Below the pieces are notes generated by a model. The model was given only the letters and a program-made list of their open reading frames with translations. It had not been told where the DNA came from and did no database searches. The position numbers and the translations under genes are program-made. DNA of 64,000 bases from the IMG/VR virus record IMGVR_UViG_3300014059_000004. One strand, given 5' to 3'. Source of the stretch: a virus. This document shows, in pieces, positions 13,319 to 58,100 of the stretch (positions within the stretch are counted from its first letter, which is position 1; every line of letters starts with the position of its first letter).

Positions 13319-13319
13319 C

Positions 13320-21752: not shown

Positions 21753-21764
21753 ATAAAGTTTGAG

Positions 21765-21796
21765 TGCCCTGCTTCAAAACAGGGCATTCGCTTTTC
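21765..21796 (+). terminator. rho-independent terminator after the major capsid gene
   Basis: Stem TGCCCTG / CAGGGCA with an 8-nt loop, followed by TTCGCTTTTCTC. Confidence 0.6.
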
Positions 21797-21838
21797 TCGA
21801 TTAGTATACATTTATCTCTAACGGATGAAGATCATTTG

Positions 21839-25691: not shown

Positions 25692-25909
25692 TGCAGTACG
25701 TTAATCTATTTGAGCCGTTGCTTGCTCACAGAAAAGGACCGGCTCCTGTGTTCATCAACGTTGGTGTTCAGGCCGTTGACATGTATACTGAGTCTGGAAC
25801 TGTTGCTGCACCAGTAACGTCTGAGACTTACGTTAAGCTATCTTCATTGCCACCTGAACTGCGTGAACGCGTGAAGACAGCTGTTCAAGCTATTTTCTCG
25901 GGGATGTGA
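25688..25909 (+). CDS. hypothetical small protein
   Basis: ORF with ATGA overlap with the previous gene. Confidence 0.4.
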   Translation: MMQYVNLFEPLLAHRKGPAPVFINVGVQAVDMYTESGTVAAPVTSETYVKLSSLPPELRERVKTAVQAIFSGM

Positions 25910-39132: not shown

Positions 39133-40520
39133 CCAACAGATTTAACGCTAGAGGAGCAGTCAATCACGGTGTAGCACCGCTTCCATCTGGGTACCCAGAA
39201 GGCCCGACTACGTCCATCACCATCCCACCAGTGGGGATTGAAGATGTTGACGTGTCTTTGTTTCAGTTGTTCAACAAAGAATTGCCACTGCTTGTGACAG
39301 AAGGCGAGGGTACTGGTACGAAAAGAGTTCCGATCATCTTTGCTGGCGGCGAGAAGTGGGCACTCATCAAGAAGAACAAGTCAATAAGAGACAAGAACGG
39401 TTCTTTGATCCTACCGATCATAGTGATCGGACGCACTAACATAACGCAATCACCAGTCACTGACATCACCGGTCGGGGAATCAACCAGATGACTGGTGAG
39501 ATCATAGTGAGAAGAAAACTAGATAATTCAGACCGTAGCTACCAAGGTTTGATTAATCGAGTTTTTCTGCGTCACTCGAGTGGGCTTGGTGTGCCAGTTG
39601 CGATGGCCGACAGCGGTCAGCTAGCCACAGAGCGCCGCGTCGGCGAGCTAGGGGATGAAGTTGGTATCGTTGCTGATGGCGGCTTGATGGTACCAGATCG
39701 CACAAACAACATCTACGAGACGCTTGTTGTTCCATCACCGCAGTTTTACACAGCAACGTACGAAGTTGAGATCTGGGCGCAGTACCGTCGGCAGATGAAT
39801 CAGCTGCTTGAGACGTTGATCTCTTCTTTCTTGCCGCAGACACGTGGTTGGAAACTTTCAACACCAGCCGGTTATTGGTTCGTTGCAACGCTAGCAGATG
39901 AAAATTTCACGCCAGACATGAACTTTGATGACATGAGCACCGCGGAAAGGATGATCAAGACGAAGTTTGAGATCAACGTTCCTGCGTACATCTTGGCATC
40001 GTCAGCACCAGGCGTGCCGCTAGCTGTGAAGCGCTACGTTTCAGTCCCAGAAGTTAACTTTAGCGTCGGTCTACCGCTGCCAGAAGCGTCTGTTAGAGAT
40101 GGCGTTGATGATCCATTCTTGGGAGCTGACGATCCGACGTTGCCGTTGTCTGCCGTTAGAAATGGTAGACGTGATCAAAGAGAAACTGGGCGAGGTCGCC
40201 TGTTCATTGCTAGCGAGCAGATTGATCCAAATGATCCAGCTCTTCAAGCATTCTCAAGGGGAAGAAACCCACCTCAGTACAAGAGATACTTGGCTCGTAA
40301 TTCTCGCGGTGAACTTGTTGAAAGGTTCGTTCGAATCACAACTGTTAATTCTAACACTGGTGAAACAGTCTACTCGACGGGCGTAGACATGGGCGACTTG
40401 TCAATAGAAGTGATCGATGGATTAGCACCAATCTCACGCGGTTTTCGTCAAGAACCTTTGATACTTATCGTAGCGATTCCAACCACAGAAGAGAAGATCG
40501 ATGCCAGAGCAAACATTTAA
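39129..40520 (+). CDS. putative tail/baseplate protein immediately upstream of the sheath gene
   Basis: ORF with ATGA overlap upstream and overlap with the sheath gene start. Confidence 0.4.
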   Translation: MTNRFNARGAVNHGVAPLPSGYPEGPTTSITIPPVGIEDVDVSLFQLFNKELPLLVTEGEGTGTKRVPIIFAGGEKWALIKKNKSIRDKNGSLILPIIVIGRTNITQSPVTDITGRGINQMTGEIIVRRKLDNSDRSYQGLINRVFLRHSSGLGVPVAMADSGQLATERRVGELGDEVGIVADGGLMVPDRTNNIYETLVVPSPQFYTATYEVEIWAQYRRQMNQLLETLISSFLPQTRGWKLSTPAGYWFVATLADENFTPDMNFDDMSTAERMIKTKFEINVPAYILASSAPGVPLAVKRYVSVPEVNFSVGLPLPEASVRDGVDDPFLGADDPTLPLSAVRNGRRDQRETGRGRLFIASEQIDPNDPALQAFSRGRNPPQYKRYLARNSRGELVERFVRITTVNSNTGETVYSTGVDMGDLSIEVIDGLAPISRGFRQEPLILIVAIPTTEEKIDARANI

Positions 40521-43515
40521 GTCACCAAATTTTTACGAGCGCGAAATTGATCTTTCAGCTCCGCAGATTGCAGGTCCCGTCGGCGTACCGGCTGGTGTCA
40601 TCGGAACTAGCAACAAGGGACCAGCGTTTGTGCCGGTCACTGTTGGAAATTTTGATGAATTCGTAGCTAGATTTGGTAATCTAGATCCAAAGAGATTTGG
40701 ACCGTATGCTGTCAAAGAATTCTTGCAGCACAAGACTGCTCTAACGTACTTGAGAGTCCTTGGTGCGGGAGCGAACGCATCTTCTTCTGACATTCTTACG
40801 ACTCAAACGACCGGTCGAGTTCTGTCGGCAGGCATGTACTTGAATGGAACGGCAGCGGCTCACGATAACCTTGGTCGTCACAACGGTGCGGTGCAGTTTC
40901 TCGCTGCTCGGCACACGTTGCAGACGAACGAAGCTTACGGAATCCCACTCTTCACGGACAACGATTCTTACACTGGTTCTACTGTTAACTTGATCAGAGG
41001 CATGATCATGACGCCAACCTCTTCGAGGGTCATGGTCCTTGGTGGTGGAACTGCAGCGCCCCTTGGAACGTTCAACGGCTCGAACTCTGATTCGGCGACG
41101 CTGTCTGGCGGTAAGTTCAAGCTGATCATCTCTTCTACGTTGGGAAACACGTTCTGGAATTCAGACAACAACCCTGGTGTGAAGATCTTCACTGCAAGCT
41201 TGAACCCAACTGACGCTGATTACTTTGCGAAGATCCTTAACACAGATCCAGACAAGTTCGTCTCTGAGCAGCACTACTTGTACGCTGATTTCCCAGTTGA
41301 TGATGAGCTAGCAACAGCGACAGTCGTCGGCGTTCTCTCTGGGTCGAATGTCACTTCAGCTAACTCTGGTGACACCACGCTTGCAATGAGAAAAGCCTTC
41401 GGCGCTTTCGACACCAGGTACAAGGCACCATCAACTTCGTACTTCATCTCGCAACCTTTCGGTGCAACTGAGTACGATCTGTTCAAGTTTGAAGCTCTTG
41501 ATGATGGTGAGTATGCAAACACTCTCTACAAGATTGCAATCACCGATCTTAAGGCATCGCTTGATGATTCAAACCCTTACGGTACGTTCACCGTGCAGGT
41601 GAGAGATTGGACAGACACGGACACGAATCCTAAGGTTCTGGAGTCATTCCCTAACTGCTCTTTGAATCCAACCGCTACGAACTACGTTGCGAAGCTAGTT
41701 GGCGATAGAAAAGTTACGTTCAACTTCGATGCAACAATTGACGCCGAGCGCAGGATTGTCACCTTCGGAAAGTACGATAACAAGTCCAAGTACGTCAGAA
41801 TCGTCATGACAGATGCTGTCGAGAGAGCGCTAGTTCCTCAGAAGACGCTTCCGTTCGGATTTCATGGACATCAGCTTCCGAAGACAAACGATCTTCTGAC
41901 TGATACGTCTCCTTCGACAGCAACGTCAAGGTTGGCGGCATCGTTGGGCGTATCTGTTGCATCGTCTCTGTCTGGTTCCTTGCTTCCGCCCGTGCCTTTC
42001 AGAGTGAAAGTTACGAAGGGCGACGCACCTTCTGGCGCAGCTTGGCAAGGTCTACCAGGTTCAACAGAGCTTGTTTTGTCGCAGCTTTACTGGGGCGTTA
42101 AGTTCGAAAGAAACACGAATGCTCTGAACCCAAATCTTGTCAGCGAGAAGAACGCGCTGCTTGCATCTTACACGAAGTTCCTTGGCATCGACAAGCTCGA
42201 TGTTCTTGTAAGCGGATCGGGTGCAGATACGTTCAACAACAACAAGTTCACGCTTGCCAAGGTTGCTTTCTCCAACGCCGCGATCACGCACCTCACTGCA
42301 TCAGTTACTGAGCACATGAAGGAAGCTGCGTACATCAGAAACGGTAAGCTTGATACGTCGAACTACACGATCAACGATTCAGCTATCGGAACGAGAGTTA
42401 CGCTAGCTACGATCCTTGCAAAGGACACGGCAGCGAACTTTAACAAGTTCTCTACGTTCACCAAGTTCGTCACCTTCATGGGTGGCGGCTGGGACGGTGT
42501 CAACATCCTTGATAGGGATGCACGCAGGCTCAACGATAAGGCATCATCGTTCGATGCGGGTGGCGGAGCAGAAGTTGGTTACACCGCACCAGGCCTTGGA
42601 TTCAATCCAAGCGGTACTGATCAGCTTAACTCGACTGTTGCGTCTTACAAGACTGCAGTTGATATCATGACTGATCCAATGACTGTCAACACTAACATCC
42701 TCACGATCCCTGGTATCAGAGAGACGTTTGTGTCTGATTACGCTATGAAGAAGGTGCGTGACTACGGTCTAGCATACTACGTCATGGACATTCCTTCGTA
42801 CGATGATGCATCAGCTCGCCTGTACGATGATTCAACAGCGCGCCCATCTGTTGACAAGACGGCGGAGCAAGTTGACACAAGAGCGATTGATAACAACTAC
42901 GCTGGAACGTACTACCCAGACGTATACATTGATGATGCTACGAACAAGCGTAGGGTCAAGGTGCCGGCGTCTGTTGCAGCGATGGGTGCTTTGGCATTCA
43001 ACGACAGGGTTGCATATCCTTGGTTCGCACCAGCAGGTTTCAACAGAGCGTCTCTTGACTTTGTCAGCAATGTTGCTGTCAGATTGAACGTCTCTGACAG
43101 AGATAGGCTTGATGCTTCTAGGATCAACCCGATCGCAACTTTCCCAAGGTTGGGCTTTGTGATCTACGGTCAGAAGACGCTGCAGATCAACAAGTCTGCT
43201 CTTGACAGAGTCAACGTCAGGCGTCTCCTCCTAGAAGTCAAGAGAATCATCATTGACATCGCGCAGCGTGGCGTGTTTGAGAACAACACGCCAGAAGTTA
43301 GAAACAAGTTCGTTGCAGATGCAACGTTGCAGCTCGGACTCATCCAGGCGCAAGCTGGTGTTGAGCAGTTCCAAGTTGTGATGAACGAAACGAACAACAC
43401 GCAGGAAGACGTCGATCTTAACCGCCTCAACGGAAAGATCATGATTGTTCCAACACGCACAATCGAGTATATCGCGATCGATTTTGTGATCACGAACAGC
43501 GGAGTAGTTTTTTAA
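40501..43515 (+). CDS. tail sheath protein, copy 1 (gp18-like, 1004 aa)
   Basis: N-terminal SPNFYEREIDLSAP...PAGVIGTSNKGPAFVPVTVG resembles the gp18 N-terminal pattern. The conserved C-terminal block ALDRVNVRRLL...PTRTIEYIAIDFVITN is paralogous to the 44443 gene. Confidence 0.8.
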   Translation: MPEQTFKSPNFYEREIDLSAPQIAGPVGVPAGVIGTSNKGPAFVPVTVGNFDEFVARFGNLDPKRFGPYAVKEFLQHKTALTYLRVLGAGANASSSDILTTQTTGRVLSAGMYLNGTAAAHDNLGRHNGAVQFLAARHTLQTNEAYGIPLFTDNDSYTGSTVNLIRGMIMTPTSSRVMVLGGGTAAPLGTFNGSNSDSATLSGGKFKLIISSTLGNTFWNSDNNPGVKIFTASLNPTDADYFAKILNTDPDKFVSEQHYLYADFPVDDELATATVVGVLSGSNVTSANSGDTTLAMRKAFGAFDTRYKAPSTSYFISQPFGATEYDLFKFEALDDGEYANTLYKIAITDLKASLDDSNPYGTFTVQVRDWTDTDTNPKVLESFPNCSLNPTATNYVAKLVGDRKVTFNFDATIDAERRIVTFGKYDNKSKYVRIVMTDAVERALVPQKTLPFGFHGHQLPKTNDLLTDTSPSTATSRLAASLGVSVASSLSGSLLPPVPFRVKVTKGDAPSGAAWQGLPGSTELVLSQLYWGVKFERNTNALNPNLVSEKNALLASYTKFLGIDKLDVLVSGSGADTFNNNKFTLAKVAFSNAAITHLTASVTEHMKEAAYIRNGKLDTSNYTINDSAIGTRVTLATILAKDTAANFNKFSTFTKFVTFMGGGWDGVNILDRDARRLNDKASSFDAGGGAEVGYTAPGLGFNPSGTDQLNSTVASYKTAVDIMTDPMTVNTNILTIPGIRETFVSDYAMKKVRDYGLAYYVMDIPSYDDASARLYDDSTARPSVDKTAEQVDTRAIDNNYAGTYYPDVYIDDATNKRRVKVPASVAAMGALAFNDRVAYPWFAPAGFNRASLDFVSNVAVRLNVSDRDRLDASRINPIATFPRLGFVIYGQKTLQINKSALDRVNVRRLLLEVKRIIIDIAQRGVFENNTPEVRNKFVADATLQLGLIQAQAGVEQFQVVMNETNNTQEDVDLNRLNGKIMIVPTRTIEYIAIDFVITNSGVVF

Positions 43516-43552: not shown

Positions 43553-44338
43553 ATGAAAATGTGGTACGTATACGAAGACTGGACGACGGAAGATAATCCC
43601 AGATGTTATTACGTTGGTAAGGGTGATGATGATCGTATTATGAAAGTTAAACGAAATCAACATCATACCAACGTAGTTTCTTTGTACGGATTTGATCGTC
43701 GTATTGTGCTTACAACGTCTTCAGAAATAGAAGCTCTAGAGCTGGAACGAAAGTTGATTGTTGAACGTCAGACTTATTCTAAAGCGATTGACTACAATGG
43801 TATTGGTTGTAATCTTACTCTTGGTGGACAAGGAAATTCAGGTCGAATAGTGACTGAAGAAACCTGCAGAAAAATTTCTGATGCTAAACGCGGGAAAAAA
43901 TCAACCAAAATTTGGTCAGATGCAGAACGTACTGCGACTTCTATTAGAATGAGCAATCTTCATAAAGGTAAACGCATTAGTGAAGAACACAAAAGTATTC
44001 TTAAAGCGAGAATGTCAGATCCAGAAATTAAGCAAGATATGATTGACAAAGTCAGTGCGTCACTCAAGAAAAAGTATGAATTTGATTTGAGTTTTCGACA
44101 GCGAATTGTTGAAACACGCGCTCGCGGTGAAAATAATCCTAACACTCCATTTACTGAAGACGATGTTAGAAAAATGAGAGATGAATGGAGACAAGTTGAC
44201 AAAGTTACAAAGGGTAATAGATGGTCAGGAATTTCTCCTTCATCGAAATTTTGTAATTGCTGGGCTGAGCGTTTTGGAGTTACTACTCAAGCAATAATTG
44301 CTATTGTTACAGAGAAAACATGGAAACATCTGCTATGA
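43553..44338 (+). CDS. GIY-YIG homing endonuclease with NUMOD3-like repeats
   Basis: MWYVYED...CYYVGKG...R...E. GRIVTEETCRKISDAKRG and KGKRISEEHKSILKARMSD are NUMOD3-like. AT-rich relative to the flanks. Confidence 0.7.
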   Translation: MKMWYVYEDWTTEDNPRCYYVGKGDDDRIMKVKRNQHHTNVVSLYGFDRRIVLTTSSEIEALELERKLIVERQTYSKAIDYNGIGCNLTLGGQGNSGRIVTEETCRKISDAKRGKKSTKIWSDAERTATSIRMSNLHKGKRISEEHKSILKARMSDPEIKQDMIDKVSASLKKKYEFDLSFRQRIVETRARGENNPNTPFTEDDVRKMRDEWRQVDKVTKGNRWSGISPSSKFCNCWAERFGVTTQAIIAIVTEKTWKHLL

Positions 44339-44414: not shown

Positions 44415-44442
44415 ATTGATACTTACACTGCAGAGGCATAGG

Positions 44443-47400
44443 ATGTCACAGATAAAGTTTGGAAGTGCTGGAGTTTCAGCAAAAGAAATTGACCTATCAG
44501 GTCCAGTTGTTCAGCAACCTGTCGGCATCCCAGCCGGCGTCATCGGAACTGCAACAAAGGGTCCGGCATTCGTGCCAGTCACCGTTGGTTCTATCGATGA
44601 CTTCTACCTAAAGTTCGGCAAGACAGACGGAAAAAAGTTCGGTCCGCTTGCTGTTACTGAGTGGCTAAGAAACGCCGGAGCTTTGACGTACGTTCGAGTT
44701 CTTGGTGTAGGTGACGGCAAGCAAAGAGTTGCTGATGGAACGACTGCTGGCTCTGTCACAAACGCAGGTTTCACAGTCGGTAGCTTGCAACCACGATCAT
44801 CTGATGGTGCTCTAGCTGGAAACAATTACGCAAACTCTGGAACGCTTGGTTCACCGCTTGGAAGAACGTATTTCCTCGGCGCCTTCATGTCAGAGTCTGC
44901 TGGTTCAACAGCGTTCTCTGATGCAGGCCTGCAGGGCGCAGGTTCTGTAACACCTGGCATCACAAGCTCAGTTCCAGTCCTCAGAGGTGTGCTTATGGCA
45001 CCTTCTGGCGTCATCCTTCGCCTCTCATCGTCTGCTGAAGGAACGAACTCAGCACCTTCTTCCACGCTTGTTGCTACAGATGCTACTGCAAACGGCAGCA
45101 TGATCGGTGCAGTTGTTTTGACAGATGGATCAGTTTCGAAGCAAGACTTTGTCATGCTTCTCAATGGTCACAAGGGAACAGATCCTCTGTACCCGAATGT
45201 GATCACTGCATCCTTCGATCTTACTTCGCCAAATTACTTTGCAAACGTTCTGAACACTGATCCTTACAAGATGCAGCAAGCAGGTCACTACCTGTACGCA
45301 TCTTGGGACATCCACCCAGCAGTGGCTGCAGTCACTGGTTCTGGCCTAGTGTACCCAGTCAGCGGTGCTGCAGGTTCTCAAGTCGCTAAGTCTGGACAAG
45401 AATCATCAGCATTCTTGACAACTGGCTCACTTGGAAGAAACCTTGGTTCTTCGACTGTGCCAAACTACGAGTCATTCTCTGATAGATTCTCACACGCTAA
45501 GTCACCTTGGGTTATCTCTCAGAAGTTCGGTGGTTCTGCGGCTAACCTGTTCAGATTGCATGCTCTAGACGCCGGCGCTGGAGTTTCTACTCTCTACAAG
45601 GTGTCTATCGAGAACATCACTCCTTCGTCTGACTCGCAGAATCGTTACGGTACCTTCGATCTTGTCTTGAGAGATTGGTCTGATAGAGACGGTAACTTGA
45701 TTCCTCTCGAGCAGTTCAGAGGTTTGTCGCTCGATCCAAGCTCTGATCGTTACATTGCTAAGATCATCGGTGACGCTCACGTGTTCTACGACTTTGATCG
45801 TTCAGAACCGGCACAGAAGTTGGTTGTCGATGGAAACTACACAGCTAACTCTAACCTCGTAAGAGTTGAAGTTGATCCTGGTGTTGAGAACCAGACCGTC
45901 GATCCAACCGCTCTTCCGATGGGTTTCAGGGGCATTGAGCACCTGGTCACGTCCGGATCTGCTCCGATGACGTCAATTGCAGGAACGCAGCTGAGCGCGG
46001 CAACTTACCTGAAGAGAGTGGTCACTCCACCTCTTCCAATGAGAACAAACATCACCGCTGGCAGCGGTAACAAGGTTCAAGTGAACCCGCTTCTTTACTG
46101 GGGCGCTCAGTTTGAGCATGTCACCAGCTTGTCAACGCCAAATGCATCGACGTACAAGAACGATTCGATGAAGGCTTTTGCCAAGTACTTCCCTAACTTC
46201 TCCACTGTGAACCAGAACTTCTCAGTTGGTGATAACACGGGAGACGTCGACACAGACACGTGGGGCATCATCGACGCAGATAGGTTCTGCAACAACATGT
46301 TCACGCTGGAAAATATCCAAGTTGTGACTGGTTCGACCACGTACGCTGATTCTGCTCAGTGGGCATCTGCTCAGTACGTCAGGAACGGAAACATCACTGC
46401 TTCTGATTCTGCGAAGACTCGTAGATTCTCTGTCAATGACTTGATTCAGGCAAACAGAAGGTACGCAAAGTTCTCCTTCTTGATGCAAGGTGGTTTCGAT
46501 GGCGTCAATCTGTTTGACAGAGACTCTGTTGAGATCAACAACGCCGCAGTCACCGCAGACATGAACTCCACGACAAGAAATCGTGATCAAGGTGCAAACG
46601 TAAGATCTTACGCAAAAGCACTCGAGATCATGAAGAACGTCGTTAGCGTCGATGTTCAGCTGCTGGCAATACCAGGCATCAGGCATGCAATCGTAACAGA
46701 TGCTGCTGCTGATGCAGTCAGAGAGAGATTCGACGCTCTTTACATCATGGACATCGAGCAGTTCGACAACACGGGCGTTGAAGTTACATCTGACAGCCAG
46801 ATGCCTTCTGTCACGTCGACGGCTTCATCGTTCAGCTCTAGGGCAGTTGACAACAGCTTTGCAGCTGCATACTTCCCAGACGTTGTGATGCCAGATCCTA
46901 ACACGAAGACTAACCTCGTGGTTCCTCCTTCTGTTGCAGTCCTGGGCGCTCTAGCGTTGAATGACGCTGTGGGTCACCCATGGTTCGCACCAGCAGGCTT
47001 CACCAGAGGCGCTCTGTCGACGACGCTGGAAGCAAGAGTTCAGCTGTCCAAGACGAACATGGATGCTCTGTACGATGTCAACATCAACCCAATCGTTGCA
47101 TTCCCAGGAAATGCATCTGGTGGAACTAGCCCGAAGGGTGGAGTTGTCGTGTGGGGTCAGAAGACGCTTCAGGCTGCTGCATCTGCTCTTGACAGAGTCA
47201 ACGTAAGACGACTCCTGATCGAGATCAGAAGGCAAGTCAGAGACATCTCTAGGACGATCATCTTCGAGCCAAACAGAGCAGCAACGCTCGCAAGGTTCTC
47301 TTCAGCCGTCACGCCACGTCTGCAGAGAATCCAGGCACTGTCTGGTCTTGAGAGGTTCAGGGTCATCATTGATTCTTCAACCACGACGCAAGCAGACATC

Positions 47401-47514
47401 GAGAACAACACGATTCGCGGTAAGATCTTCGTGCAGCCAACCCGTACGATAGAGTATGTCAGTCTTGATTTTGTTGTAACAAACAACATTCAAGCAGCAT
47501 TAACTTCCAACTGA
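44443..47514 (+). CDS. tail sheath protein, copy 2 (gp18-like)
   Basis: The ATG at 44443 has a GAGG RBS; the ORF track starts at the TTG at 44416, inside the hairpin. N-terminus EIDLSGPVVQQPVGIPAGVIGTATKGPAFVPVTVG and C-terminus ALDRVNVRRLLIEIRR...PTRTIEYVSLDFVVTN are paralogous to copy 1. Confidence 0.8.
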   Translation: MSQIKFGSAGVSAKEIDLSGPVVQQPVGIPAGVIGTATKGPAFVPVTVGSIDDFYLKFGKTDGKKFGPLAVTEWLRNAGALTYVRVLGVGDGKQRVADGTTAGSVTNAGFTVGSLQPRSSDGALAGNNYANSGTLGSPLGRTYFLGAFMSESAGSTAFSDAGLQGAGSVTPGITSSVPVLRGVLMAPSGVILRLSSSAEGTNSAPSSTLVATDATANGSMIGAVVLTDGSVSKQDFVMLLNGHKGTDPLYPNVITASFDLTSPNYFANVLNTDPYKMQQAGHYLYASWDIHPAVAAVTGSGLVYPVSGAAGSQVAKSGQESSAFLTTGSLGRNLGSSTVPNYESFSDRFSHAKSPWVISQKFGGSAANLFRLHALDAGAGVSTLYKVSIENITPSSDSQNRYGTFDLVLRDWSDRDGNLIPLEQFRGLSLDPSSDRYIAKIIGDAHVFYDFDRSEPAQKLVVDGNYTANSNLVRVEVDPGVENQTVDPTALPMGFRGIEHLVTSGSAPMTSIAGTQLSAATYLKRVVTPPLPMRTNITAGSGNKVQVNPLLYWGAQFEHVTSLSTPNASTYKNDSMKAFAKYFPNFSTVNQNFSVGDNTGDVDTDTWGIIDADRFCNNMFTLENIQVVTGSTTYADSAQWASAQYVRNGNITASDSAKTRRFSVNDLIQANRRYAKFSFLMQGGFDGVNLFDRDSVEINNAAVTADMNSTTRNRDQGANVRSYAKALEIMKNVVSVDVQLLAIPGIRHAIVTDAAADAVRERFDALYIMDIEQFDNTGVEVTSDSQMPSVTSTASSFSSRAVDNSFAAAYFPDVVMPDPNTKTNLVVPPSVAVLGALALNDAVGHPWFAPAGFTRGALSTTLEARVQLSKTNMDALYDVNINPIVAFPGNASGGTSPKGGVVVWGQKTLQAAASALDRVNVRRLLIEIRRQVRDISRTIIFEPNRAATLARFSSAVTPRLQRIQALSGLERFRVIIDSSTTTQADIENNTIRGKIFVQPTRTIEYVSLDFVVTNNIQAALTSN

Positions 47515-47527
47515 ATCAGTTAACTTC

Positions 47528-47563
47528 AAACGCTCGGATTGTTCATCCGAGCGTTTGTTTGTT
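47528..47563 (+). terminator. rho-independent terminator after sheath copy 2
   Basis: 12-bp stem AAACGCTCGGAT-tgttc-ATCCGAGCGTTT followed by GTTTGTTT. Confidence 0.65.
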
Positions 47564-47593
47564 ACAATAGTACCAACTGAATTGAGTAACTTA

Positions 47594-48415
47594 ATGCATG
47601 TTATCTACAGACACACAAACAAACTAAATTTGAAAATTTATGTCGGGCAAACAGTAACGTTGAATGAAAATACAGCTGAAGAGTCTATGTACAAAAGATG
47701 GGCATCACATTGCAAAGATGCAAAATTGAATTCAAAACTAAGATTTCACGTAGCAATTAGAGATTTTGGAGAAGAAAATTTTCTTCATGAAGTTATAGAA
47801 ATATGTGAAAATCAAGAGCAAGCAAATCAACTAGAAATATTTTGGATCGAAAAACTTAAATCGTATGTTGCTTACGGTGGTTATAACATGATCCTCGGAG
47901 GTGGCGTTGGATCTGGCAGTAGAAATCCAATGGCTATTTTGACAGAAGAAATTGTAGCTAAGATAAAAGCAGCATGGAATGAAGAAAAACCATACGAAAC
48001 GTTGTTGTTGGGTGAATTTTATCAAAAATATGCTAAGCTTTATGGTGTTAAACCAGACACTATAACCCACATCATTAAAGGCAGATTGTGGATGGGTGTT
48101 GGGCCCATTGTTGAATGTTCATCAAATGATCATACCGGCAAAAGTCCAATAACCGGCTCCAAGTTGAAGAAGAAATGGAAAGAAGATGAAGACTTTCGTC
48201 AGAGAGAAATCAAAAAACGACAAGGTGAGAATAATTCAAGTGCAAAATTGTCAGAAGAAACTATTCGACAAATAAGACTAGACTTCCAGCAAGTTGATGT
48301 AACTAAATTTGGTGCAAAATCAATTTTCTACAGACATATGGCTGAAAAATATTCTGTGACGCCAGAGTTGATATGCGGAATTGTCAGAAGAACGTGTTGG
48401 AAGCACGTCACTTAA
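47594..48415 (+). CDS. GIY-YIG homing endonuclease
   Basis: MHVIYRHTNKLNLKIYVGQT...KRW..H...E motifs. AT-rich. The ORF track begins at an upstream alternative start at 47555. Confidence 0.7.
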   Translation: MHVIYRHTNKLNLKIYVGQTVTLNENTAEESMYKRWASHCKDAKLNSKLRFHVAIRDFGEENFLHEVIEICENQEQANQLEIFWIEKLKSYVAYGGYNMILGGGVGSGSRNPMAILTEEIVAKIKAAWNEEKPYETLLLGEFYQKYAKLYGVKPDTITHIIKGRLWMGVGPIVECSSNDHTGKSPITGSKLKKKWKEDEDFRQREIKKRQGENNSSAKLSEETIRQIRLDFQQVDVTKFGAKSIFYRHMAEKYSVTPELICGIVRRTCWKHVT

Positions 48416-48428: not shown

Positions 48429-48770
48429 ATGAAAATTACTGAATCGCAGCTAAGAAAGTTGATCAAGGAAGTTCTGAAGGAAGAGGCTGAACTGTCCGAA
48501 GCATCCATGGAGCAAGCCAAAGTCCAGGGTCCGCTTAGAGACTTGTACACTTCCCTTCAGACTGCCAAGAAGCAGCTTGGCCGTGAGGGTGCAAAGAGAG
48601 CCGTGTCAGAGCTGATGCAGAACACTTCTGAGTCTGAGAAGGCTCAGCAGCTGCTGAAGGCGATCACGCAGATCGAATCAAACATCGATTCAGTGATGAA
48701 CTGGCTCAATAGCACTTCAGCTTCAAGCATGACCAAAGACCCTTGGGCAGGCGTGGGCAAGAGAAGCTGA
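48429..48770 (+). CDS. hypothetical small protein with a CTS-like N-terminal leader
   Basis: N-terminal ITESQLRKLIKEVLKEE leader motif. Confidence 0.5.
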   Translation: MKITESQLRKLIKEVLKEEAELSEASMEQAKVQGPLRDLYTSLQTAKKQLGREGAKRAVSELMQNTSESEKAQQLLKAITQIESNIDSVMNWLNSTSASSMTKDPWAGVGKRS

Positions 48771-48796: not shown

Positions 48797-48826
48797 GAAA
48801 ACCTCGGATCTTTTTTCCGAGGTTTT
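48797..48826. terminator. bidirectional terminator between convergent genes
   Basis: Stem AAAACCTCGG-atctttttt-CCGAGGTTTT, with T/A runs on both sides. Confidence 0.65.
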
Positions 48827-48832
48827 CTCGTT

Positions 48833-50620
48833 TCAATCTGTGGGCCGTAGAGACGGTAAGAGCGCCATCTCGTAGAGCATGTTGCCGCACCCATATATCT
48901 TGACAACGCCAGCTTCTTCTGCAACTTGAGCTTCAGTCAGACCCATGGGTTTGTTGGCTTTGAACTTGAAGCGATTGAAGCGGTTGTCAAAGTCAGTCCA
49001 CCAGAATCGTGGAGGCGTAGAAGAATTAAACTTCCAACCAGCGCGTTCCCATGACTTGCCATTTGTTCCTAGTCGAGTGTCGATGTAAGATATCATCTTG
49101 CGTGCTCCCATCAGCTTTGACTGTGCAGCACAGTGCTTTGTCAGACGACCCAGCCATCCTCTGACGTTAACGTTTGACTTGCAGCACGCTCTAGCAATTT
49201 CAATTGCATCTTTGTGCGCAGAATGAAACGGTTTTCTTACTGACATGCAAGCAAGCAGCTCATCATTTTCAAACAACCCGTACGCAGCATTGCTAGCAAC
49301 GTCTCCATCGATGTGATTCACGTTGAAGAATGCTTTACGTTCTTGCGTGCTCACGCTTCGCACAGTGCACTTTCTTGCATCGTACTTTTTAGAATGAAGC
49401 TTAAGCTTATGATCGATCATGCTGCAGACGATGTCACGCTTGTTTTTCCATTCATCTTCGAAGATGTGAAGAAGGTTAACTTGATTCTCTTGAGCCTTGA
49501 TTGACTTGTTGTTGTGATAGATAGAAGACTTGTTTATGACGCTGTGCCAGTACAACCCATTGTACTCGATCCCAAAGCGATGTTCCGGAACGTAGATATC
49601 AATTTCCAGACCTTGCAGAACGTCTCTCCTACAAGAATCAACAGCAACATTCTTGCTCTTTACGTACTGATATATTTCAGATTGCGCAACTGAACCAGTC
49701 GAATCGCAAGACCAGCATCTTCCAGATTGAAGGCGCCGCAACGAGCTGTTCCATTCTTTTGAGCACCGCGTGCACTTCACGCTTATGTTAGGAACGTTGT
49801 CATTGATGTAGCAAGATGCATCAGGCATGTTCAACGCAAGCGTTCCATGAGATTCAACTCGCTCTTTTATCTCTTCGTACATCAATCTCTTTGATGCATC
49901 AAGCTTCTCTCTCAAGTTTTTATTTGAGTGTGTTATAGCAACTTTTGCTGCCATCGCAGCGATCTTTTCGCTGCTTGCTTTGTTGAGACCTTTTGCCCAA
50001 GGAACCAACTGTCCTTCTTGAAACATCCTAGAAAGATTATCGCTAGTTGCTTTAAGCCTATCGTCTGTTTCTTTAGTGAGACCCTTCGACCAGATCTTTA
50101 TCTTACCTTCTTCAAATGCTGCTTTTCTTCCGGCGCTTGTTGATGCTGCTCTTGATGCGACCCTTGGGTCTGTTTCTTTAGTGAGACCTTTCGCCCAACC
50201 TGTCTTGCCTCTAAGCTTGTTCTTTCTGCTTTCTGAGATTTGAGCAGCTTTTTCTGGGGAGTATACTGCGTATATGTTCGAACTGTGTCCCTTCAACGTT
50301 CCGTTATAACCGCTGTGCCAAGATATCCAAGTTGTTTCTGCTCCGCAACCGCACTTACACTTGATCGGTCCGTTGTTGACCTTATCCCAAGCATCTTTTG
50401 TCGTCATAGAGTGCAATGACTTCATGTGTTCATCGAACGCAGTTAGCTTCTTTGTGGTGAATTCGCAGAACGGACAGTTAGCCGCAGCTGGATTCTTTCT
50501 AATAGCGTACATGCAAGCTCTGCATGGTTTGTTCTTCTTGGCTGCGCCTCGGGCTGCAGCATCATTTGCATGTTCTATGATTTGTGAACATGACGGACAT
50601 GTTCGTTCATTAGGTTTCAT
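48833..50620 (-). CDS. free-standing homing endonuclease (C2H2 + CxCGCG + W.KGLTKET repeats + Vsr/DUF559-like PD-(D/E)XK core)
   Basis: CPFCEFTTKKLTAFDEHMKSLH, CKCGCG and three W(A/S)KGL(T/N)KE repeats. IEYNGLYWHS...LLHIFEDEW. C-terminal PRFWWTDFDNRFNRF...VKIYGCGN is shared with the 51286 gene. Confidence 0.7.
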   Translation of the reverse strand: MKPNERTCPSCSQIIEHANDAAARGAAKKNKPCRACMYAIRKNPAAANCPFCEFTTKKLTAFDEHMKSLHSMTTKDAWDKVNNGPIKCKCGCGAETTWISWHSGYNGTLKGHSSNIYAVYSPEKAAQISESRKNKLRGKTGWAKGLTKETDPRVASRAASTSAGRKAAFEEGKIKIWSKGLTKETDDRLKATSDNLSRMFQEGQLVPWAKGLNKASSEKIAAMAAKVAITHSNKNLREKLDASKRLMYEEIKERVESHGTLALNMPDASCYINDNVPNISVKCTRCSKEWNSSLRRLQSGRCWSCDSTGSVAQSEIYQYVKSKNVAVDSCRRDVLQGLEIDIYVPEHRFGIEYNGLYWHSVINKSSIYHNNKSIKAQENQVNLLHIFEDEWKNKRDIVCSMIDHKLKLHSKKYDARKCTVRSVSTQERKAFFNVNHIDGDVASNAAYGLFENDELLACMSVRKPFHSAHKDAIEIARACCKSNVNVRGWLGRLTKHCAAQSKLMGARKMISYIDTRLGTNGKSWERAGWKFNSSTPPRFWWTDFDNRFNRFKFKANKPMGLTEAQVAEEAGVVKIYGCGNMLYEMALLPSLRPTD

Positions 50621-50727
50621 CTATTCTATAGTATCCATTGCTCAACAGAAAGTAATTTTTAGTTTGTTCTAAAGTTATCCATGCTGATATTTGTTTAACA
50701 CCAACAGTGGTTTAGAAGGAAAGTACC

Positions 50728-51219
50728 ATGCCAGCAGAGACACTAGACGTTTCGTCAATGATTCCGAACAAATTCGAGCCAAAGCGTAAAAATCGTTTCG
50801 TCTTGATGATCGAAGGTATCGATGCATACCTGATTAAAACAGCAGCTCGTCCGACGGTGACGACGGAAGAAGTTGAGATTCCATTCATCAACTCTCACCG
50901 TTACCTCGCCGGCAAGACGAAGTTTAACACGATCGCTGTGACTCTCTATGATCCGATCGCACCATCCGGCGCGCAGCAGGTCATGGAGTGGATCAGAACG
51001 TGCTACGAGAGCGTGTCCGGCCGTGCTGGTTACGCTGACTTCTACAAGAGAGATATCCAGCTTAAGATGTTGGATCCTGTCGGTACAGTAGTCGAACTAT
51101 GGGATGTCAAAGGTGCATTCTGCACTGAAGTCAACTTCGGTGAATTGACATATGAAGACGGTGGACCAGGAGAAATTTCTCTAACGATCAGAGCTGATAA
51201 CTTCGTTCTACAGTTCTGA
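50728..51219 (+). CDS. tail tube protein (gp19-like, 163 aa)
   Basis: Same length as T4 gp19. KRKNRFVLMIEG resembles gp19 RPNLFQVEI. C-terminal WDVKGAFCTEVNFGELTYEDGG...ISLTIRADNF resembles KGLWPTNVGELQLDWDSNNEIQTFEVTLALDYWE. Lies downstream of the sheath. Confidence 0.7.
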   Translation: MPAETLDVSSMIPNKFEPKRKNRFVLMIEGIDAYLIKTAARPTVTTEEVEIPFINSHRYLAGKTKFNTIAVTLYDPIAPSGAQQVMEWIRTCYESVSGRAGYADFYKRDIQLKMLDPVGTVVELWDVKGAFCTEVNFGELTYEDGGPGEISLTIRADNFVLQF

Positions 51220-51285
51220 AGCACAGATTGCAACATCAGTTGCAACTGGAATATACAACTTTGTAGGCTGTGGTATAGTTATGCC

Positions 51286-52947
51286 ATGGCCTACGATCGT
51301 ATCAAGTGTCCGAACTGTTCTCTTGATTTTGGGCAAGAGCTTCGTTTCCTAGATCATCTAACAGATGTGCATGGGATCACTGACCATGAACAACATTACG
51401 TTGATGTTATTTTGAGTGGGATCAAACCGACATGTGGTTGTGGTTGCAACGAACACGTTAACTGGTCTAGTTGGAAGAAGGGTTACACGTCAAAGTTCAA
51501 ACGTGGACACAATGCCGTTGTCGATTCCGTGTATCTAAATCCAGAGAAGCAAGTGGAATTTGCAAGGAAAAGACATGATGGTTATGCTAGTGGCCAGTAC
51601 AGCACTTGGAACAAAGGCCTGACGAAAGAAACGTCTGAGAAAGTTGCGATAACTTCTCAGAAGATATCAACTTCCTTGAAAGAAGGATATAAGTCAGGAA
51701 CGATCATTGATTGGCACAAAAAAGATCCTGCAGCGGCCGTCGCCGCAGCCACGAAAATCTCAAGCACAAAAAAGAAGAAATTTCAAACTGGTGAACTGAA
51801 CGTCTGGAACAAAGGTATGACTAAAGAATCAGATGAAAGAGTTGCATCAGTTTCAAACACAATAAAGCATCAAATTGAAGCGGGTCATGTTATTCCTTCA
51901 AAAAGATTGTCATCTGATGAATTTTTGTCATTGATTTCGAAACAAAAGACTTTTTCTTTGGTGTCTGATCCTTCAACATATAAAAACAAATATGTAAAAT
52001 TTGACTTTAAGTGCAATACCTGCGGAAAAATATCAAAAAAGAACTTGATGATGATAAAGAGCGTTCCTGTTTGCTTTAACTGTCATCCTAAGGAATCCAA
52101 AGCACAGATCGAAATATACGATTACGTTCGATCCTTGGCGCCTGATGCAGTGCTTTCTGATAGAACTGTAATCTCACCAAAAGAGATTGATGTGTTTGTT
52201 CCTTCGAAGAAGTTCGGAATTGAGTATGATGGTCTTTATTGGCACAGTGAAATTATCGATAGCGACAAGAAAAGAAGCCAAAAGAAGCATGATGCTGCAT
52301 TGAATGTTGGAGTAAAGCTTCTTCACATATTTGAAGATGAATGGCGAGACAAGCAAGAACTTGTGAAATCAATGATAGCTTACAGGCTTGGAACATCTTC
52401 AAAAGTAATTGGTGCACGTAAGTGTGAAGTGAAAGCACTTACAGTTCAACAAAGAAAGCAATTCATGAATGCTAATCACCTTGAAAATGATTGCAATTCT
52501 TCTGCTTCATGGGGATTGTTTTACAATGGTGAGCTTGTTTCCGCGCTATCACTTCGTCGTCCTTTTCATGCACGTTATAGAGATGCATACGAAGTTGGCA
52601 GGTTCTGCAACCTGATGAACACAACCGTTCCAGGAGCTCTTTCTAAGTTGCTTAAGGTTGCTATAACTTGGGCGAAAAATAAAGGTGCTGCTCGCCTGCT
52701 GTCTTACGTTGATCTTCGCATAGGGGATGGTTCTGGATACGAAAAAGCTGGCTTTAAGCTCATCTCCAGTTCAAGTCCAAGATTTTGGTGGACAGACTAC
52801 AAGAATCGCTTGAATCGTTTTGCTGTAAAAGCTGATGCATCTTCGGGTTTGACACAAATAGATGCAGCGAAGAACGCTGGCGTTGTAGCGATTTGGGGAT
52901 GTGGTAATCAAATACTAGAGCTGAACATTGAGGAGAAGAGTGAATGA
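51286..52947 (+). CDS. free-standing homing endonuclease, paralog of the 48833 gene
   Basis: CPNCSLDFGQELRFLDHLTDVHG, CGCGCN, WNKGLTKETSEKV and WNKGMTKESDERV. IEYDGLYWHSE...LLHIFEDEW. PRFWWTDYKNRLNRF...VAIWGCGN. Confidence 0.7.
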   Translation: MAYDRIKCPNCSLDFGQELRFLDHLTDVHGITDHEQHYVDVILSGIKPTCGCGCNEHVNWSSWKKGYTSKFKRGHNAVVDSVYLNPEKQVEFARKRHDGYASGQYSTWNKGLTKETSEKVAITSQKISTSLKEGYKSGTIIDWHKKDPAAAVAAATKISSTKKKKFQTGELNVWNKGMTKESDERVASVSNTIKHQIEAGHVIPSKRLSSDEFLSLISKQKTFSLVSDPSTYKNKYVKFDFKCNTCGKISKKNLMMIKSVPVCFNCHPKESKAQIEIYDYVRSLAPDAVLSDRTVISPKEIDVFVPSKKFGIEYDGLYWHSEIIDSDKKRSQKKHDAALNVGVKLLHIFEDEWRDKQELVKSMIAYRLGTSSKVIGARKCEVKALTVQQRKQFMNANHLENDCNSSASWGLFYNGELVSALSLRRPFHARYRDAYEVGRFCNLMNTTVPGALSKLLKVAITWAKNKGAARLLSYVDLRIGDGSGYEKAGFKLISSSSPRFWWTDYKNRLNRFAVKADASSGLTQIDAAKNAGVVAIWGCGNQILELNIEEKSE

Positions 52948-53237
52948 GTGATGTTGTGTTGCCGGGTTGGGCTAAGAGTTATAACAATCCTCAAGCGCTC
53001 GTCGAGCGCATCATGAGGTACTTTCACCGTAAGTCAAGGCCAGTGTACCTCGGCGAGATCTCGATAGAGACGGGTCTGTCGTTGAAGAAGACAGAAGAGT
53101 TGCTGCAGTGCTTCGTTGAAGCCCAGCTCATCAAACTAGCAACGAAGGAGACGCTGAAAAAGTTGGGATCAGATGAATCGTCAGTGGTCTTTGTGCTGTC
53201 TGGAAGCTCAGATTTGAAGTTCGCGTACCTAGAATAG
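52944..53237 (+). CDS. hypothetical protein
   Basis: ORF with ATGA overlap upstream. Confidence 0.4.
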   Translation: MSDVVLPGWAKSYNNPQALVERIMRYFHRKSRPVYLGEISIETGLSLKKTEELLQCFVEAQLIKLATKETLKKLGSDESSVVFVLSGSSDLKFAYLE

Positions 53238-54431: not shown

Positions 54432-55157
54432 ATGCCGAACGAGAAGTGGACGTCAGCAGGTGGTGTTGTTCTAGATTCGCTTGAAGAACCGTATCGAGTG
54501 TACGTTTGCAAGCCGTCTAACAACTACGGTCCATGGACTTTTCCAAAAGGAAGAGTTGATGCTGGAGAAGGACTAGAAGAAACTGCGCTTCGCGAAGTTC
54601 AAGAAGAAGCAGGCGTTCCAGCAAAGATGCTTCCGAACGGTTCGCTTGGAACTGGCGTTGGGTCGTACAGCATCACGCACTACTTCATGATGGTCAGAAC
54701 TGGTCAAGTTGGCGCTCATGACTATGAGACGGAAGAAGTGAGATGCTGCACCCTTGAAGAAGCGAAAGAGTTGTTCGAATCAGATGGGAACAGCAGAGAT
54801 GTTGGTATCCTTAGTCGAGCAGCTGCATACATAGAGAAGAACGTTAAAGGAAAAGAGAAGATGTCTGAGTCAAAAGTTATCAACGAATTGAAGACAAATT
54901 TGCTCGGTAAGATCTTCTTTGCCACTGTTGGAGCGTGGTTGGTGGGTAAAGCTGTCAATGTCAAACTCCGCGGTACTAACGAGCAAGTTCAAACTGTAGC
55001 TAACGCGCTGCTAGCATCAAAGAAGTTCCAGGACGAGCTGAAGCACCCAGGCGCAACAGTTGAATCTGTCATGAACAAGCTTAGCGTGAAGCACATGACT
55101 GCTCAAGAGTTCGAAAAGCAGTTCAACATTCCGTTCCCGTTGTTACTTGTAGGTTGA
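54432..55157 (+). CDS. Nudix hydrolase
   Basis: Nudix box GRVDAGEGLEETALREVQEEAGV (Gx5Ex7REUxEExGU). Confidence 0.8.
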   Translation: MPNEKWTSAGGVVLDSLEEPYRVYVCKPSNNYGPWTFPKGRVDAGEGLEETALREVQEEAGVPAKMLPNGSLGTGVGSYSITHYFMMVRTGQVGAHDYETEEVRCCTLEEAKELFESDGNSRDVGILSRAAAYIEKNVKGKEKMSESKVINELKTNLLGKIFFATVGAWLVGKAVNVKLRGTNEQVQTVANALLASKKFQDELKHPGATVESVMNKLSVKHMTAQEFEKQFNIPFPLLLVG

Positions 55158-55164
55158 GGTCTAA

Positions 55165-58100
55165 GTGGCGGGCCCAGTAGATAAAGATCAGGTTGATATT
55201 GCGACAAAGCTAGCTGCTTTGATGGATCGCATGGCGGTGTCATCTGCAAAGATTGACGCGGCTTACGCTACGCAAGTAGAGTCCATGAAGCAGTTGGCTA
55301 CTACGATGGGCCAAGTTGATGTTAAGAACGTCATCGGCGAGATAGGAAAGATCAACAAAGATCTGAAGCAGATGGCTGAAAGCCTGTCTAAGGCTAAGAA
55401 CATCAATCAGCAAACGTTTGAAGAGATGGCGAAGAAGGCTGGTGATGCTGGAACTTCGGTGACATCGCTCAGCGGTCGAATCAAAGAATCGACGAAGCTC
55501 ATAGAAGGAATGAACAAGACACCGCTTGATAAGCTTCACGAGGCGTTGTCAGAACCTGGTGGCGCTGCTGGCATCCTGAACAAGCAGCTTGGCAAGCTTG
55601 GCATAACGGTGTCAAAGAAGTTTCCTGATGGCATGATGATTGCATCAGCGGCAGCGTCGGGCTTCGCGCAAGGCATTGAAAATGTCATCGCTGTCGGTAA
55701 AGCTTCTCTTGGAATGCTTGAAGGCTTGACATCTGCGCTGTTCAACATTGGCGGTGCGATCCTTGCAATCCCGTTCAAGATGTTCAAGGGATTGATCGAT
55801 ATCGCAAATAATGCCGGCGCTGGATCAACTGAGCTAGCGCAAGCTATCGAAAACCTCAGAAAAGAATTTGGAGCGTTGGGAACAGGATCACCAAAGGTGA
55901 TCATGGACATGTCTGTCCAGCTGAAGGGATTCTCAGACACTGGCCTGTCTGCGTACAGGATCTTTGGTAACCTCGCGCATCGTCTAGAAGAATTCTTGAA
56001 GTTGGCTCAGGAGATGGGACCAAACTTCCAGAACTTTGCTGATGAATTCAAGGAGAACGGTGGTGCTCTGCTCGCATGGCAGAAGGGTCTTGGTCTATCT
56101 GGTGAGATGATGAGGACCATGAGCGAGAGAGCAAAGTCTCTCGGAACCAACATGGCGAAGCAGCTGTACGAGGTTCAGAAGCAAGCTCAGGGTCTTGGCA
56201 AGGCGTTTCAGATCGATTCAAAGTTGATATCTCGAGACATGGCGAAAGCCTTCGCGGACGTGAAGCATTTTGCTGGTGCAACTGTCAAAGAGATCGCTAC
56301 GGCGTCTGTGTACGCTAGGAAGTTGGGTCTAGAGCTCGACAAGATCACCGGCACGCTAGATGCGTTTGATACTTTTGACTCAGCTGCTGAGAACGCAGCA
56401 AAGTTGTCGCAATCGTTCGGTTTGAACGTTGATGCTTTCAAGCTGATGGAAGCTCAAGATCCAGCAACGCAGATTGACATGCTGCGCAAGCAATTTGCTG
56501 CCGCCGGTCAGGATGCATCTTCTTTCAATCGTCAGCAGATGAAGCTTCTTGCTTCAACGACCGGTCTTGATGAAGCAACTGCACGTCAAGTTTTCTCTTT
56601 GAAGAACCAAGGTGCTTCTCTTGATGACATCAAGAAGAAGAGTGAGGGTGCTGAGAAGAAGCAGATGAGCCAGGCAGAGGCCATGAAGGCTCTTGCTGAC
56701 TCAATTGAGAGACTAGTTCAGGCAGGCGGTCAGGGTTCTGGTGGTTACTTTGAACGTTTCTTCAGAGGGTTCTTGGGAGGCATCCAGGCTTCGAAGGAGT
56801 TCAGAGACACTATTATGAATATCCGACGAGGTTTGCAACTTGTCGAGATGGCAGGTGTGAAAGCTGGTAAATTGTTCGCCCAGCTTACGCCGATCCAAGA
56901 ATTCTTGGGTGGTCTTGCTGAATTCTTCAAGCCAGGAAAATTTTCTAAGCTGTTTAATGCTTTTGGTGAAGAGATCGTTGCATTCTTTGAAGATGCAACG
57001 CACGGTGAACATTCATTTCCAAAATTGATGGAGAACATTCAGAAGCATTTCTTTGATTTCTTCAATGATCAGACACCTGCTGGACAGAAAACCATCAAGG
57101 GATTTCGAAAGATCTTTAAGATCATCATCAATGTGATTGCGGATGGCATAAGATGGGCTTCAACAAAAATTGCTGAAGTTTTGAAAAGCATCACAAAATT
57201 GATTCTTGATCCAAAATCTGCAAAAGACGCAGTCAAGGAAGCAGGTGGAGACGGTGCTGCTGCTGCGTTCGAGATGATTCAACCTCTGATTGATTCTCTT
57301 AGAGATTCGTGGAATATTCTAAAACCAGCAATTTTTGACTTGGTTAAGGTAGTTGGTGAAAAACTGTTTGAGTACTTCACGTCTGACGACTTTATCAATC
57401 TTGTGAAGCCGGCCTTGCCATACGTGTTTGGAATCTTGTTTGGTCCTGCCATAGTCAGATCATTGTTGGGAATTATGACTTCTAGCGTTGGTTCATTGAT
57501 AGCTAACGCAATTAAAGGAGCATTCTTGGGACCTGCAGCTGGTACTGCAGAAAGAGCTGGAACTCGAGGGTTTGGAGGTCTATTTAGGAAAATTTTTGGC
57601 GGACTTGGCAAATTCTTGGGACCTGCAGCAATCGCAGTTGCTATCGGTGATCTTGCTGTCAATGTTAACGATGCAATGAAGAAGTTTGAAGACAAGCTTG
57701 CACCAACGTTCGGTAGAACTGAAGCAAAGATGGGTGCAGCTGCGGCTGGTATTATTAATGCTTTTACGTTCGGATTGCTGCCAGACTCAATTCAAGAAAT
57801 TGTTGCTGAACAATTTGCGTCAATGTCAGAGATGATATTTGGTGCAATTCAAGATGTTTTTGGTGCTTCTTTCACTGGAAGGTTGAAGGCATATATTGGT
57901 TCTGCGCTTGATGTCTTTGGCAGCTTCGGTAACTTGATTTCTGAGATCTTCAAAGGAAAAGAGGGCGATATATCCGGCGCGCTTCAAGATCTTGGTGGCA
58001 AATTGTTGAGTTTCGTTGGTAATTGGTTCTTGTGGATGGTTGAGCAGATTCCAACATTGTATGTGATGGCTTTTCAATTCGGAACAAAGCTGCTTTCTAT

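Follow-up and report, generated by a model that had tools for sequence, protein, structure and literature searches.

Hef-like endonuclease genes on either side of a phage tail tube gene probably form two old, independently mobile lineages

Introduction

The Hef homing endonucleases of bacteriophages were reportedly named by Sandegren et al. in 2005. According to a review, Hef of phage U5 cleaves nrdB (PMC2988022), and Taylor et al. 2011 put the "bacteriophage Hef type homing endonucleases" in the EDxHD (Vsr-like) family (PMC3239194). In cultured phages, Hef and Hef-like genes are free-standing and intergenic in essential modules, including positions beside tail sheath and tube genes, and there are often several copies per genome. 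In LIMEstone1 a Hef-like gene adjoins the tail tube gene (PMC3296691). Here we describe two such genes, HefA and HefB, which flank the tail tube gene in a stretch of 64,000 nucleotides from the IMG/VR virus record IMGVR_UViG_3300014059_000004 (called the window in the following). In our judgement they are likely to represent two old lineages of free-standing, Hef-like homing endonuclease genes, each specific for one site and independently mobile.

Both proteins end in a domain that leads to a second line of literature. Mom of phage Mu is a Gly-tRNA-dependent DNA adenine-modifying enzyme of the GNAT type, in which R111, S124 and R151 are essential and an alanine substitution of D149 greatly lowers the activity (PMC13219725). 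Mom domains fused to nucleases of the restriction endonuclease (REase) fold are known from jumbo phages, where they have been read as restriction-modification-like conflict systems (Iyer, Anantharaman, Krishnan, Burroughs, Aravind 2021, PMC7824862). These fusions show the same two-domain combination as the window proteins, a REase-fold nuclease and a Mom-family GNAT domain in large phages, and very probably belong to the same protein family. The word Hef is not used in PMC7824862, and in the literature searched we found no paper combining Hef, Mom, "homing endonuclease" and phage. It appears that one set of proteins has been read in two incompatible ways, as "Hef-like homing endonucleases" and as "REase-Mom fusions".

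Results and Discussion

HefA and HefB belong to the Hef-like/EDxHD family

HefA (48833-50620, minus strand) is an open reading frame (ORF) of 595 amino acids and is divergent from the gp19-type tail tube gene (50728-51219, plus strand, 163 amino acids), which was recognised by Pfam (Phage_T4_gp19, PF06841) and PHROG 4542 (tail tube). HefB (51286-52947, plus strand, 553 amino acids) follows downstream of the tube gene. A 1032-amino-acid sheath gene lies upstream of the locus and a T4_baseplate hub gene downstream. An earlier note on the window had described the two genes as paralogs bracketing the tube gene in opposite orientation. Both ORFs exist at these coordinates and on these strands on either side of the gp19-type gene, and BLASTP aligns their products with 37% identity over 553 columns (E 3e-117). 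All motifs listed in that note are present in HefA and HefB, and most of them are invariant in an alignment of 75 full-length Hef homologs (A1), on which the conservation counts and the family profile used here are based.

Direct scans of HefA and HefB against Pfam and NCBIfam gave nothing above threshold, therefore family profiles were needed. Both proteins have matches to PHROG 3339 ("homing endonuclease") and PHROG 559, with E values of 1e-64 to 1e-72 (PHROG 3339: 3.6e-71 for HefA, 1.3e-72 for HefB). By tblastn, homologs of residues ~183-549 are found in 419 cultured-phage records with E values down to 1e-43, and many of these records, from Campylobacter, Klebsiella, Tenacibaculum and other phages, carry the annotation "Hef-like homing endonuclease". 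The Hef-like family comprises 21,190 cluster representatives at E 1e-3 and still 5,568 at E 1e-30.

The nuclease core motif IEY(N/D)GLYWHS ... IFEDEW is present in both proteins. The best PDB sequence match of the A1 profile is I-Bth0305I (3R3P; hmmsearch, E 1.9e-5), and D302 and H320 of HefB align with those catalytic positions of 3R3P which were mutated in the crystal construct (D196A, H213A). An AlphaFold model of residues 1-372 (predicted local distance difference test, pLDDT, 83.8) has its best Foldseek match in the same structure with a template modelling (TM) score of 0.72-0.77, followed by Vsr (1CW0/1VSR), the DUF559-like 3HRL and RAP domains. The DUF559/Vsr-like core proposed in the earlier note is thus borne out by profile as well as by fold. 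The part of HefB matching 3R3P, together with a zinc ribbon, comprises residues 216-370 (51931-52395, plus strand); the aligned region of HefA covers residues ~256-408 (49397-49855, minus strand). The catalytic region of HefB contains D302, E313, D315, H320, K334 and E350-D351-E352. Of the EDxHD positions, E300, D302, E313 and H320 are found in 75 of the 75 aligned proteins and D351 in 74; position 315, which corresponds to N208 of I-Bth0305I, is N in 49 and D in 24 of them. Pfam MTES_1575 was matched in 12 of the 75 members. The four-Cys zinc ribbon (C243, C246, C263 and C266 in HefB) is conserved and had been absent from the earlier list of motifs.

I-Bth0305I (PMC3239194) resembles HefA and HefB in the aligned catalytic D, N/D, H and D residues and in the order of an N-terminal NUMOD-type DNA-binding region and a C-terminal nuclease. 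It differs in being intron-encoded, in its size of 266 amino acids, in its NUMOD2/helix-turn-helix motifs and in having neither the zinc ribbon nor the GNAT domain. That the genes do not fit the classic Seg and Mob families of T4 was rightly seen, as HefA and HefB show no domain-level match to GIY-YIG or HNH in Pfam, NCBIfam or PHROG; the label "HNH endonuclease" of PHROG 559 is a family name and nothing more. The further suggestion of a distinct homing endonuclease family did not hold, because the core is that of known Hef-like/EDxHD enzymes, as PHROGs 3339 and 559, 3R3P and the 419 records with annotated phages demonstrate. HefA and HefB are members of the already known Hef-like/EDxHD (Vsr-like PD-(D/E)xK) homing endonuclease family. 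Since this family is known and large, they join an existing, abundant group, and a candidate for a "new family" is removed.

The Hef and Hef-like proteins of cultured phages (T4-related phages, Campylobacter phages CP8 and CP81, Dickeya phage LIMEstone1, Klebsiella and Tenacibaculum phages) share the homologous zinc ribbon, the Vsr-like nuclease and a GNAT-like domain with the window proteins, but are at most ~31-35% identical to them over residues 183-549. They differ particularly at the N-terminus, where the window proteins have a C2H2 finger, CxCGCG and NUMOD3-like repeats, whereas those of CP8 and CWW26 have repeated CxxC..GH zinc modules. In CP8 (L086, 4916-8206) two tandem Hef-like genes lie beside the tail sheath gene and convergent with it.

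Two insertion sites, two lineages

As relatives we used 80 viral contigs (L001-L080) with a tube protein 78-99% identical to that of the window, and the window genes were mapped onto them. Presence/absence polymorphism, which the earlier note had named as a check on mobility, is evident, as Hef is sporadic at both sites: of 55 loci in which both sides could be assessed, 32 are without any Hef gene, 14 have only the upstream copy, four only the downstream copy and five have both. HefA orthologs occupy the same site and strand in 25 dereplicated related loci, and HefB orthologs occupy the same site in 14. An empty site can measure as little as 72 nucleotides between sheath gene and gp19 and 121 nucleotides between gp19 and hub gene, and sites with Hef alone measure ~1775 nucleotides. 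The occupancy is patchy over the gp19 clustering.

The strand is fixed by site, minus for every upstream copy and plus for every downstream copy. The 39 unique copies split into two clades exactly by site: the nearest neighbour is a same-site copy in 39 of 39 cases, and the mean identity is 0.52 and 0.50 within the sites versus 0.36 between them. Co-occurrence of upstream and downstream Hef is compatible with independence (Fisher p 0.25), so that the two genes are not the obligatory unit implied by the word "pair" in the earlier note; two independent site-specific lineages are found instead. Two distant HefB homologs, P0014 and P0081 (51% and ~38% identity), are also located between a tube gene and a T4_baseplate gene, and on one of these two contigs (300 kb) a minus-strand gene of 567 amino acids is also found upstream of the tube gene. 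In L056 (2768-3622) the downstream lineage is represented by a truncated remnant, where only residues 1-274 are matched with 54% identity in a gap of 972 nucleotides, in agreement with decay of the gene after it had invaded.

Both intergenic regions next to the tail tube gene have long served as insertion hotspots. Counted as dereplicated loci, the upstream site (71 loci) is empty in 31, holds Hef in 25, a GIY-YIG gene in one and other or unknown sequence in 14. The downstream site (58 loci) is empty in 11, holds Hef in 14, the C2H2-CxCGCG module fused to a TnsA-like nuclease in seven, the same module with another C-terminal domain in 13 and other or unknown sequence in 13. An example of the TnsA-like group is L007:8562-9470, with a module 33% identical to residues 6-137 of HefB (E 3e-15) followed by PF08722 (E 4e-13); this combination of the module (C2H2-CxCGCG-W.KGLTK) and a TnsA-like endonuclease in the gp19-to-hub site has equivalents in L004, L008, L010, L020, L057 and L060. 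The module with another C-terminal domain occupies the gp19-to-hub site in L003, L005, L012, L015, L016, L021, L023, L024, L034, L039, L067, L070 and L075. At least three types of nuclease at the hotspots share one kind of N-terminal zinc-finger module. The idea that this module tracks the insertion site is unsupported, because the module of the TnsA-type downstream occupant is equidistant from HefA and HefB (61 versus 63 bits) and gives no evidence for such tracking.

Recombination, selection and composition

Among the relatives, L001 is nearly identical to the window, and the proteins encoded in the flanks are 99-100% identical. Codons 1-215 of HefB show the lowest nucleotide identity to L001 within 16 kb (81-84%, against 94-100% around them). 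In this tract the synonymous divergence (dS) is 0.74 with a ratio of nonsynonymous to synonymous divergence (omega) of ~0.10, compared with dS values of 0.14 in the rest of the gene and 0.03-0.21 in the flanking genes. These values indicate that the DNA-binding half was swapped for a diverged allele while the gene stayed under purifying selection. In the comparison of L052 and L051 the upstream Hef gene changes from 97-100% to 60-83% identity at about codon 218, again at the border of the two modules. The breakpoints at about codons 215-218 in two independent comparisons thus fall where the putative DNA-binding module meets the catalytic one, and offer a way in which such enzymes could acquire new targets. 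Between L052 and L078, gp19 and the downstream Hef gene form an island of 85-90% identity, with the hub gene at 62-78% and the sheath gene at 53-76%.

Omega of HefA against L001 is 0.03-0.25, and the Hef genes overall have values of 0.02-0.25, from which they are predicted to be functional. Their G+C content (0.41-0.45) is below that of the neighbouring core genes (0.48-0.50).

The N-terminal, putatively DNA-binding half

The N-terminal halves, residues 1-255 of HefA (49856-50620, minus strand) and 1-215 of HefB (51286-51930, plus strand, the tract of recombination against L001), carry the C2H2 finger, the CxCxC motif and the W.KGLTKET repeats. In HefB numbering, the C2H2 finger consists of C8, C11, H24 and H29, and the CxCxC motif of C50, C52 and C54 together with H75; all of these residues are invariant in A1, as are the Trp residues of the W.KGLTKET repeats, W108, W143 and W174. 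HefA has three good copies of this repeat, each followed by a helix; in HefB two copies are good and the third is degenerate. Besides its C2H2 finger and CxCGCG motif HefA contains an extra CxxC...CxxC element.

The repeats resemble NUMOD3 by eye. The NUMOD label of the earlier note was not upheld, as the Pfam NUMOD3 model (PF07460) matches none of the 75 members at E <=0.01, yet matches two other proteins of the window. A tblastn search with the N-terminal 208 amino acids found nothing among 50,697 phage records. Within the window, tblastn revealed similarity of the N-terminal half of HefA to the N-terminus of the protein encoded from 21764. This region of zinc fingers and NUMOD3-like helical repeats would be expected to bind DNA.

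The C-terminal Mom-like GNAT domain

The C-terminal 170-180 residues, which had been called a "tail", form a GNAT domain. It covers residues 371-548 of HefB (52396-52929, plus strand) and residues ~409-587 of HefA (48860-49396, minus strand), the latter with the PRFWWTD...GCGN motifs. The A1 profile matches GCN5 acetyltransferases (E 9e-4), and the top Foldseek matches of the full-length HefB model (AlphaFold2, pLDDT 90.4) are GNATs with E 1e-6. Mom (8BV8) takes ranks 7 and 9; it has the highest query TM and is among the best and longest matches. HefA further matches the Mom-like PHROG 1384 (E 2.7e-8) and the NCBIfam family XF1762 (E 1e-7), and hhalign aligns A1 with the Mom family profile over 133 columns (E 5.8e-5, probability 66%). 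With one Mom sequence in place of the family profile, hhalign gave no significant result, so that the profile was needed here. The Pfam Mom model PF25680 matches neither window protein and only two of the 75 homologs at E <=0.01.

The Hef C-terminus shares with Mu Mom the GNAT fold and most of the key residues. Equivalents of Mom H58, E108, R111 and D149 are invariant (75 of 75), that of R151 is kept in 74 and that of Y159 in 72 members, and those of F174 and D178 are conserved as well. The PRFWWTD motif aligns with TFYELDG of Mom. The Hef domain differs from Mom in its fusion to a nuclease and in the equivalent of S124, which is mostly Gly: G occurs in 47, S in 25 and A in three of the 75 sequences, with S in HefB and G in HefA, in a loop whose alignment is uncertain. 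The D-x-R motif is intact in the clade of the window and is shifted or lost in the Hef-like proteins of the cultured phages CP8 and CWW26.

We favour a role of the GNAT domain in DNA recognition or dimerisation, possibly with a retained Mom-type pocket. That it is active in the window clade and acylates or aminoacylates adenine within or close to the enzyme's own target, so that one polypeptide would combine cutting and self-immunity, is in our view a rather improbable variant. If true, it would make HefA and HefB "homing restriction-modification" enzymes, and the near-invariant Mom-type residues would reflect catalysis rather than mere DNA binding.

Homing and its alternatives

In the explanation that we prefer, a HefA lineage would reside on the minus strand of the sheath-gp19 intergenic region and a HefB lineage on the plus strand of the region between gp19 and the baseplate hub gene. 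Each enzyme would be a modular protein with a zinc-finger/repeat N-terminus, a four-Cys zinc ribbon, a Vsr-like nuclease with intact EDxHD positions and a Mom-like GNAT domain. During mixed infection it would cut the Hef-less allele near the tube gene, and recombinational repair from the occupied genome would copy the endonuclease gene together with adjacent sequence. The data show homology, fold, intact catalytic residues, a patchy distribution at fixed sites, recombination breakpoints and purifying selection; cleavage, the position of the target and homing itself are inferred. Several points weigh against this explanation. No near-identical pair of genomes differing in Hef occupancy was found; the window and L001 carry both genes. 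Windowed gp19 distances gave no co-conversion signal tied to occupancy (ratios 1.0-1.1), a comparison that is insensitive in sequences so diverged and is confounded by phylogeny. The link to the founder Hef of phage U5 goes through annotations and the placement in PMC3239194, and the strong conservation of Mom-type residues suggests that the C-terminus has a role beyond the needs of a classic homing endonuclease.

The main rival is the view that the proteins are single-chain restriction-modification-like conflict elements, in which the Mom-like GNAT would mark the phage's own adenines and the nuclease would attack unmodified DNA of the host or of competitors, the distribution being accessory-gene turnover. 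By analogy, this is the logic predicted for the jumbo-phage REase-Mom fusions (PMC7824862). It agrees with the fold and profile relationship to Mom, with the retention of the H58, E108, R111, D149, R151 and Y159 equivalents in 72-75 of the 75 members and with the several Hef copies per genome in some phages. We nevertheless regard it as unlikely, for the equivalent of the essential S124 is variable (Gly, Ser or Ala), the D-x-R motif is shifted or lost in cultured-phage Hef-likes, and PADLOC gives no defence-system match, just a weak "homing endonuclease" model. In addition, two lineages each faithful to one intergenic site over deep divergence fit site-specific homing better than general defence, and N6-acylated adenine is not known from phages with many Hef copies. 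A clade which keeps all Mom key residues but the S124 equivalent allows a direct experimental choice between the homing and the restriction-modification readings.

Purifying selection, and occupation of the same two sites over long times in highly divergent phages, could also be expected of genes that were domesticated or inherited vertically and serve the structural module in a host-like role, such as late-expression regulators or repair nucleases, their patchiness being due to repeated loss; the missing near-identical pair with different occupancy fits such a history too. Such a role is very unlikely, as the 32 of 55 related loci without either gene show that the genes are dispensable, the downstream site has other nuclease families in 20 further loci, and identity islands, internal recombination breakpoints and a G+C content below that of the core genes are found. 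Moreover, two other endonuclease genes were clearly gained or lost between the window and L001. It is common for homing endonuclease genes to degenerate once they are fixed, and together with the truncated copy in L056 this could suggest that HefA and HefB are decaying, inactive remnants. This notion is hardly credible and largely refuted by their full-length ORFs, by the intact state of all catalytic and zinc-binding positions and by the omega values of 0.02-0.25.

Homing elements across the window

The window carries unusually many homing elements, as had been supposed and as element-by-element domain matches now support. Of the at least ten elements counted in the earlier note, nine have database support, and the tenth, the gene at 43553, is a probable one only. 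The same gene limits the claim of three GIY-YIG genes: those at 25885 and 47555 were confirmed, while for 43553 the sole match is to Pfam NUMOD3. Its product has a GIY-YIG-like N-terminus by eye and a C-terminal part homologous to the 47555 protein, so that it probably encodes a GIY-YIG endonuclease. This gene (43553-44338) lies between two sheath paralogs and is cleanly absent from L001, with flanks 97-100% identical, which represents a direct presence/absence polymorphism.

The three PD-(D/E)XK-type genes could all be verified. The truncated ORF at 1-207 is the C-terminus of a TnsA-like endonuclease and may be of the L007 type; the gene at 14791 encodes NUMOD3 and DUF7487 with a PD...EVK motif; and the gene at 21764-22642 (292 amino acids) has an N-terminal module of the Hef type (C2H2, CxCGCG) joined to a Tox-REase-7/endonuclease-I-like nuclease of the REase fold with PD..EIK. 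The two inteins likewise stand, as the portal gene (8525-13318, 1597 amino acids) contains two Intein_splicing and two HNH_3 stretches, consistent with two inteins with HNH endonucleases. Compared with the window (~55143-55165), L001 has an extra nuclease gene of 334 amino acids (12423-13427) with DUF7487 and a Vsr-like "VQFDGVYWHG" motif, located between a Nudix-like gene and the next large gene.

Neighbouring genes and signals

The sheath-to-gp19 interval that holds HefA also contains a GIY-YIG endonuclease gene (47555-48415, plus strand; Pfam GIY-YIG E 5.2e-8, PHROG 314 homing endonuclease) and, between this gene and HefA, orf113 (48429-48770, plus strand, 113 amino acids). The latter has no significant Pfam or PHROG match; weak homologs were found by tblastn at the same interval in L002, L031 and L038 (35-38% identity). 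An ORF of 97 amino acids (52944-53237, plus strand) between HefB and the baseplate hub gene is also without significant family match in Pfam and PHROG, and has weak homologs in the gp19-to-hub interval of Hef-less relatives (tblastn, 30-44% identity; L002, L031, L032, L038, L039, L066 and others).

A perfect 12-bp hairpin at 48797-48827, read from the sequence between the convergent orf113 and HefA, is a possible terminator. A 13-bp terminator-like hairpin (47527-47557) lies directly 3' of the sheath gene and extends into the beginning of the GIY-YIG gene. About 35 nucleotides 5' of the gp19 start (window 50640-50727; equivalents in L001-L080) a conserved A/T-rich motif, (G/A)ATA(T/A)TTA, occurs in occupied and empty loci alike. 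The Hef insertion is located upstream of this motif, a possible late promoter. Sequences resembling sigma-70 promoters show no enrichment (10 against an expected 9.7).

Megablast gave no match for the 12 kb around the locus among cultured phages, and the closest sheath protein of a cultured phage, from Microcystis phage Mel-JY01, is 36% identical. The window contains two tandem tail-sheath paralogs (40501-43515 and 44416-47514) of ~1000 amino acids each, which are ~35% identical, and several relatives (L054, L057, L060, L068, L074, L077 and L078) have three sheath genes in a row.

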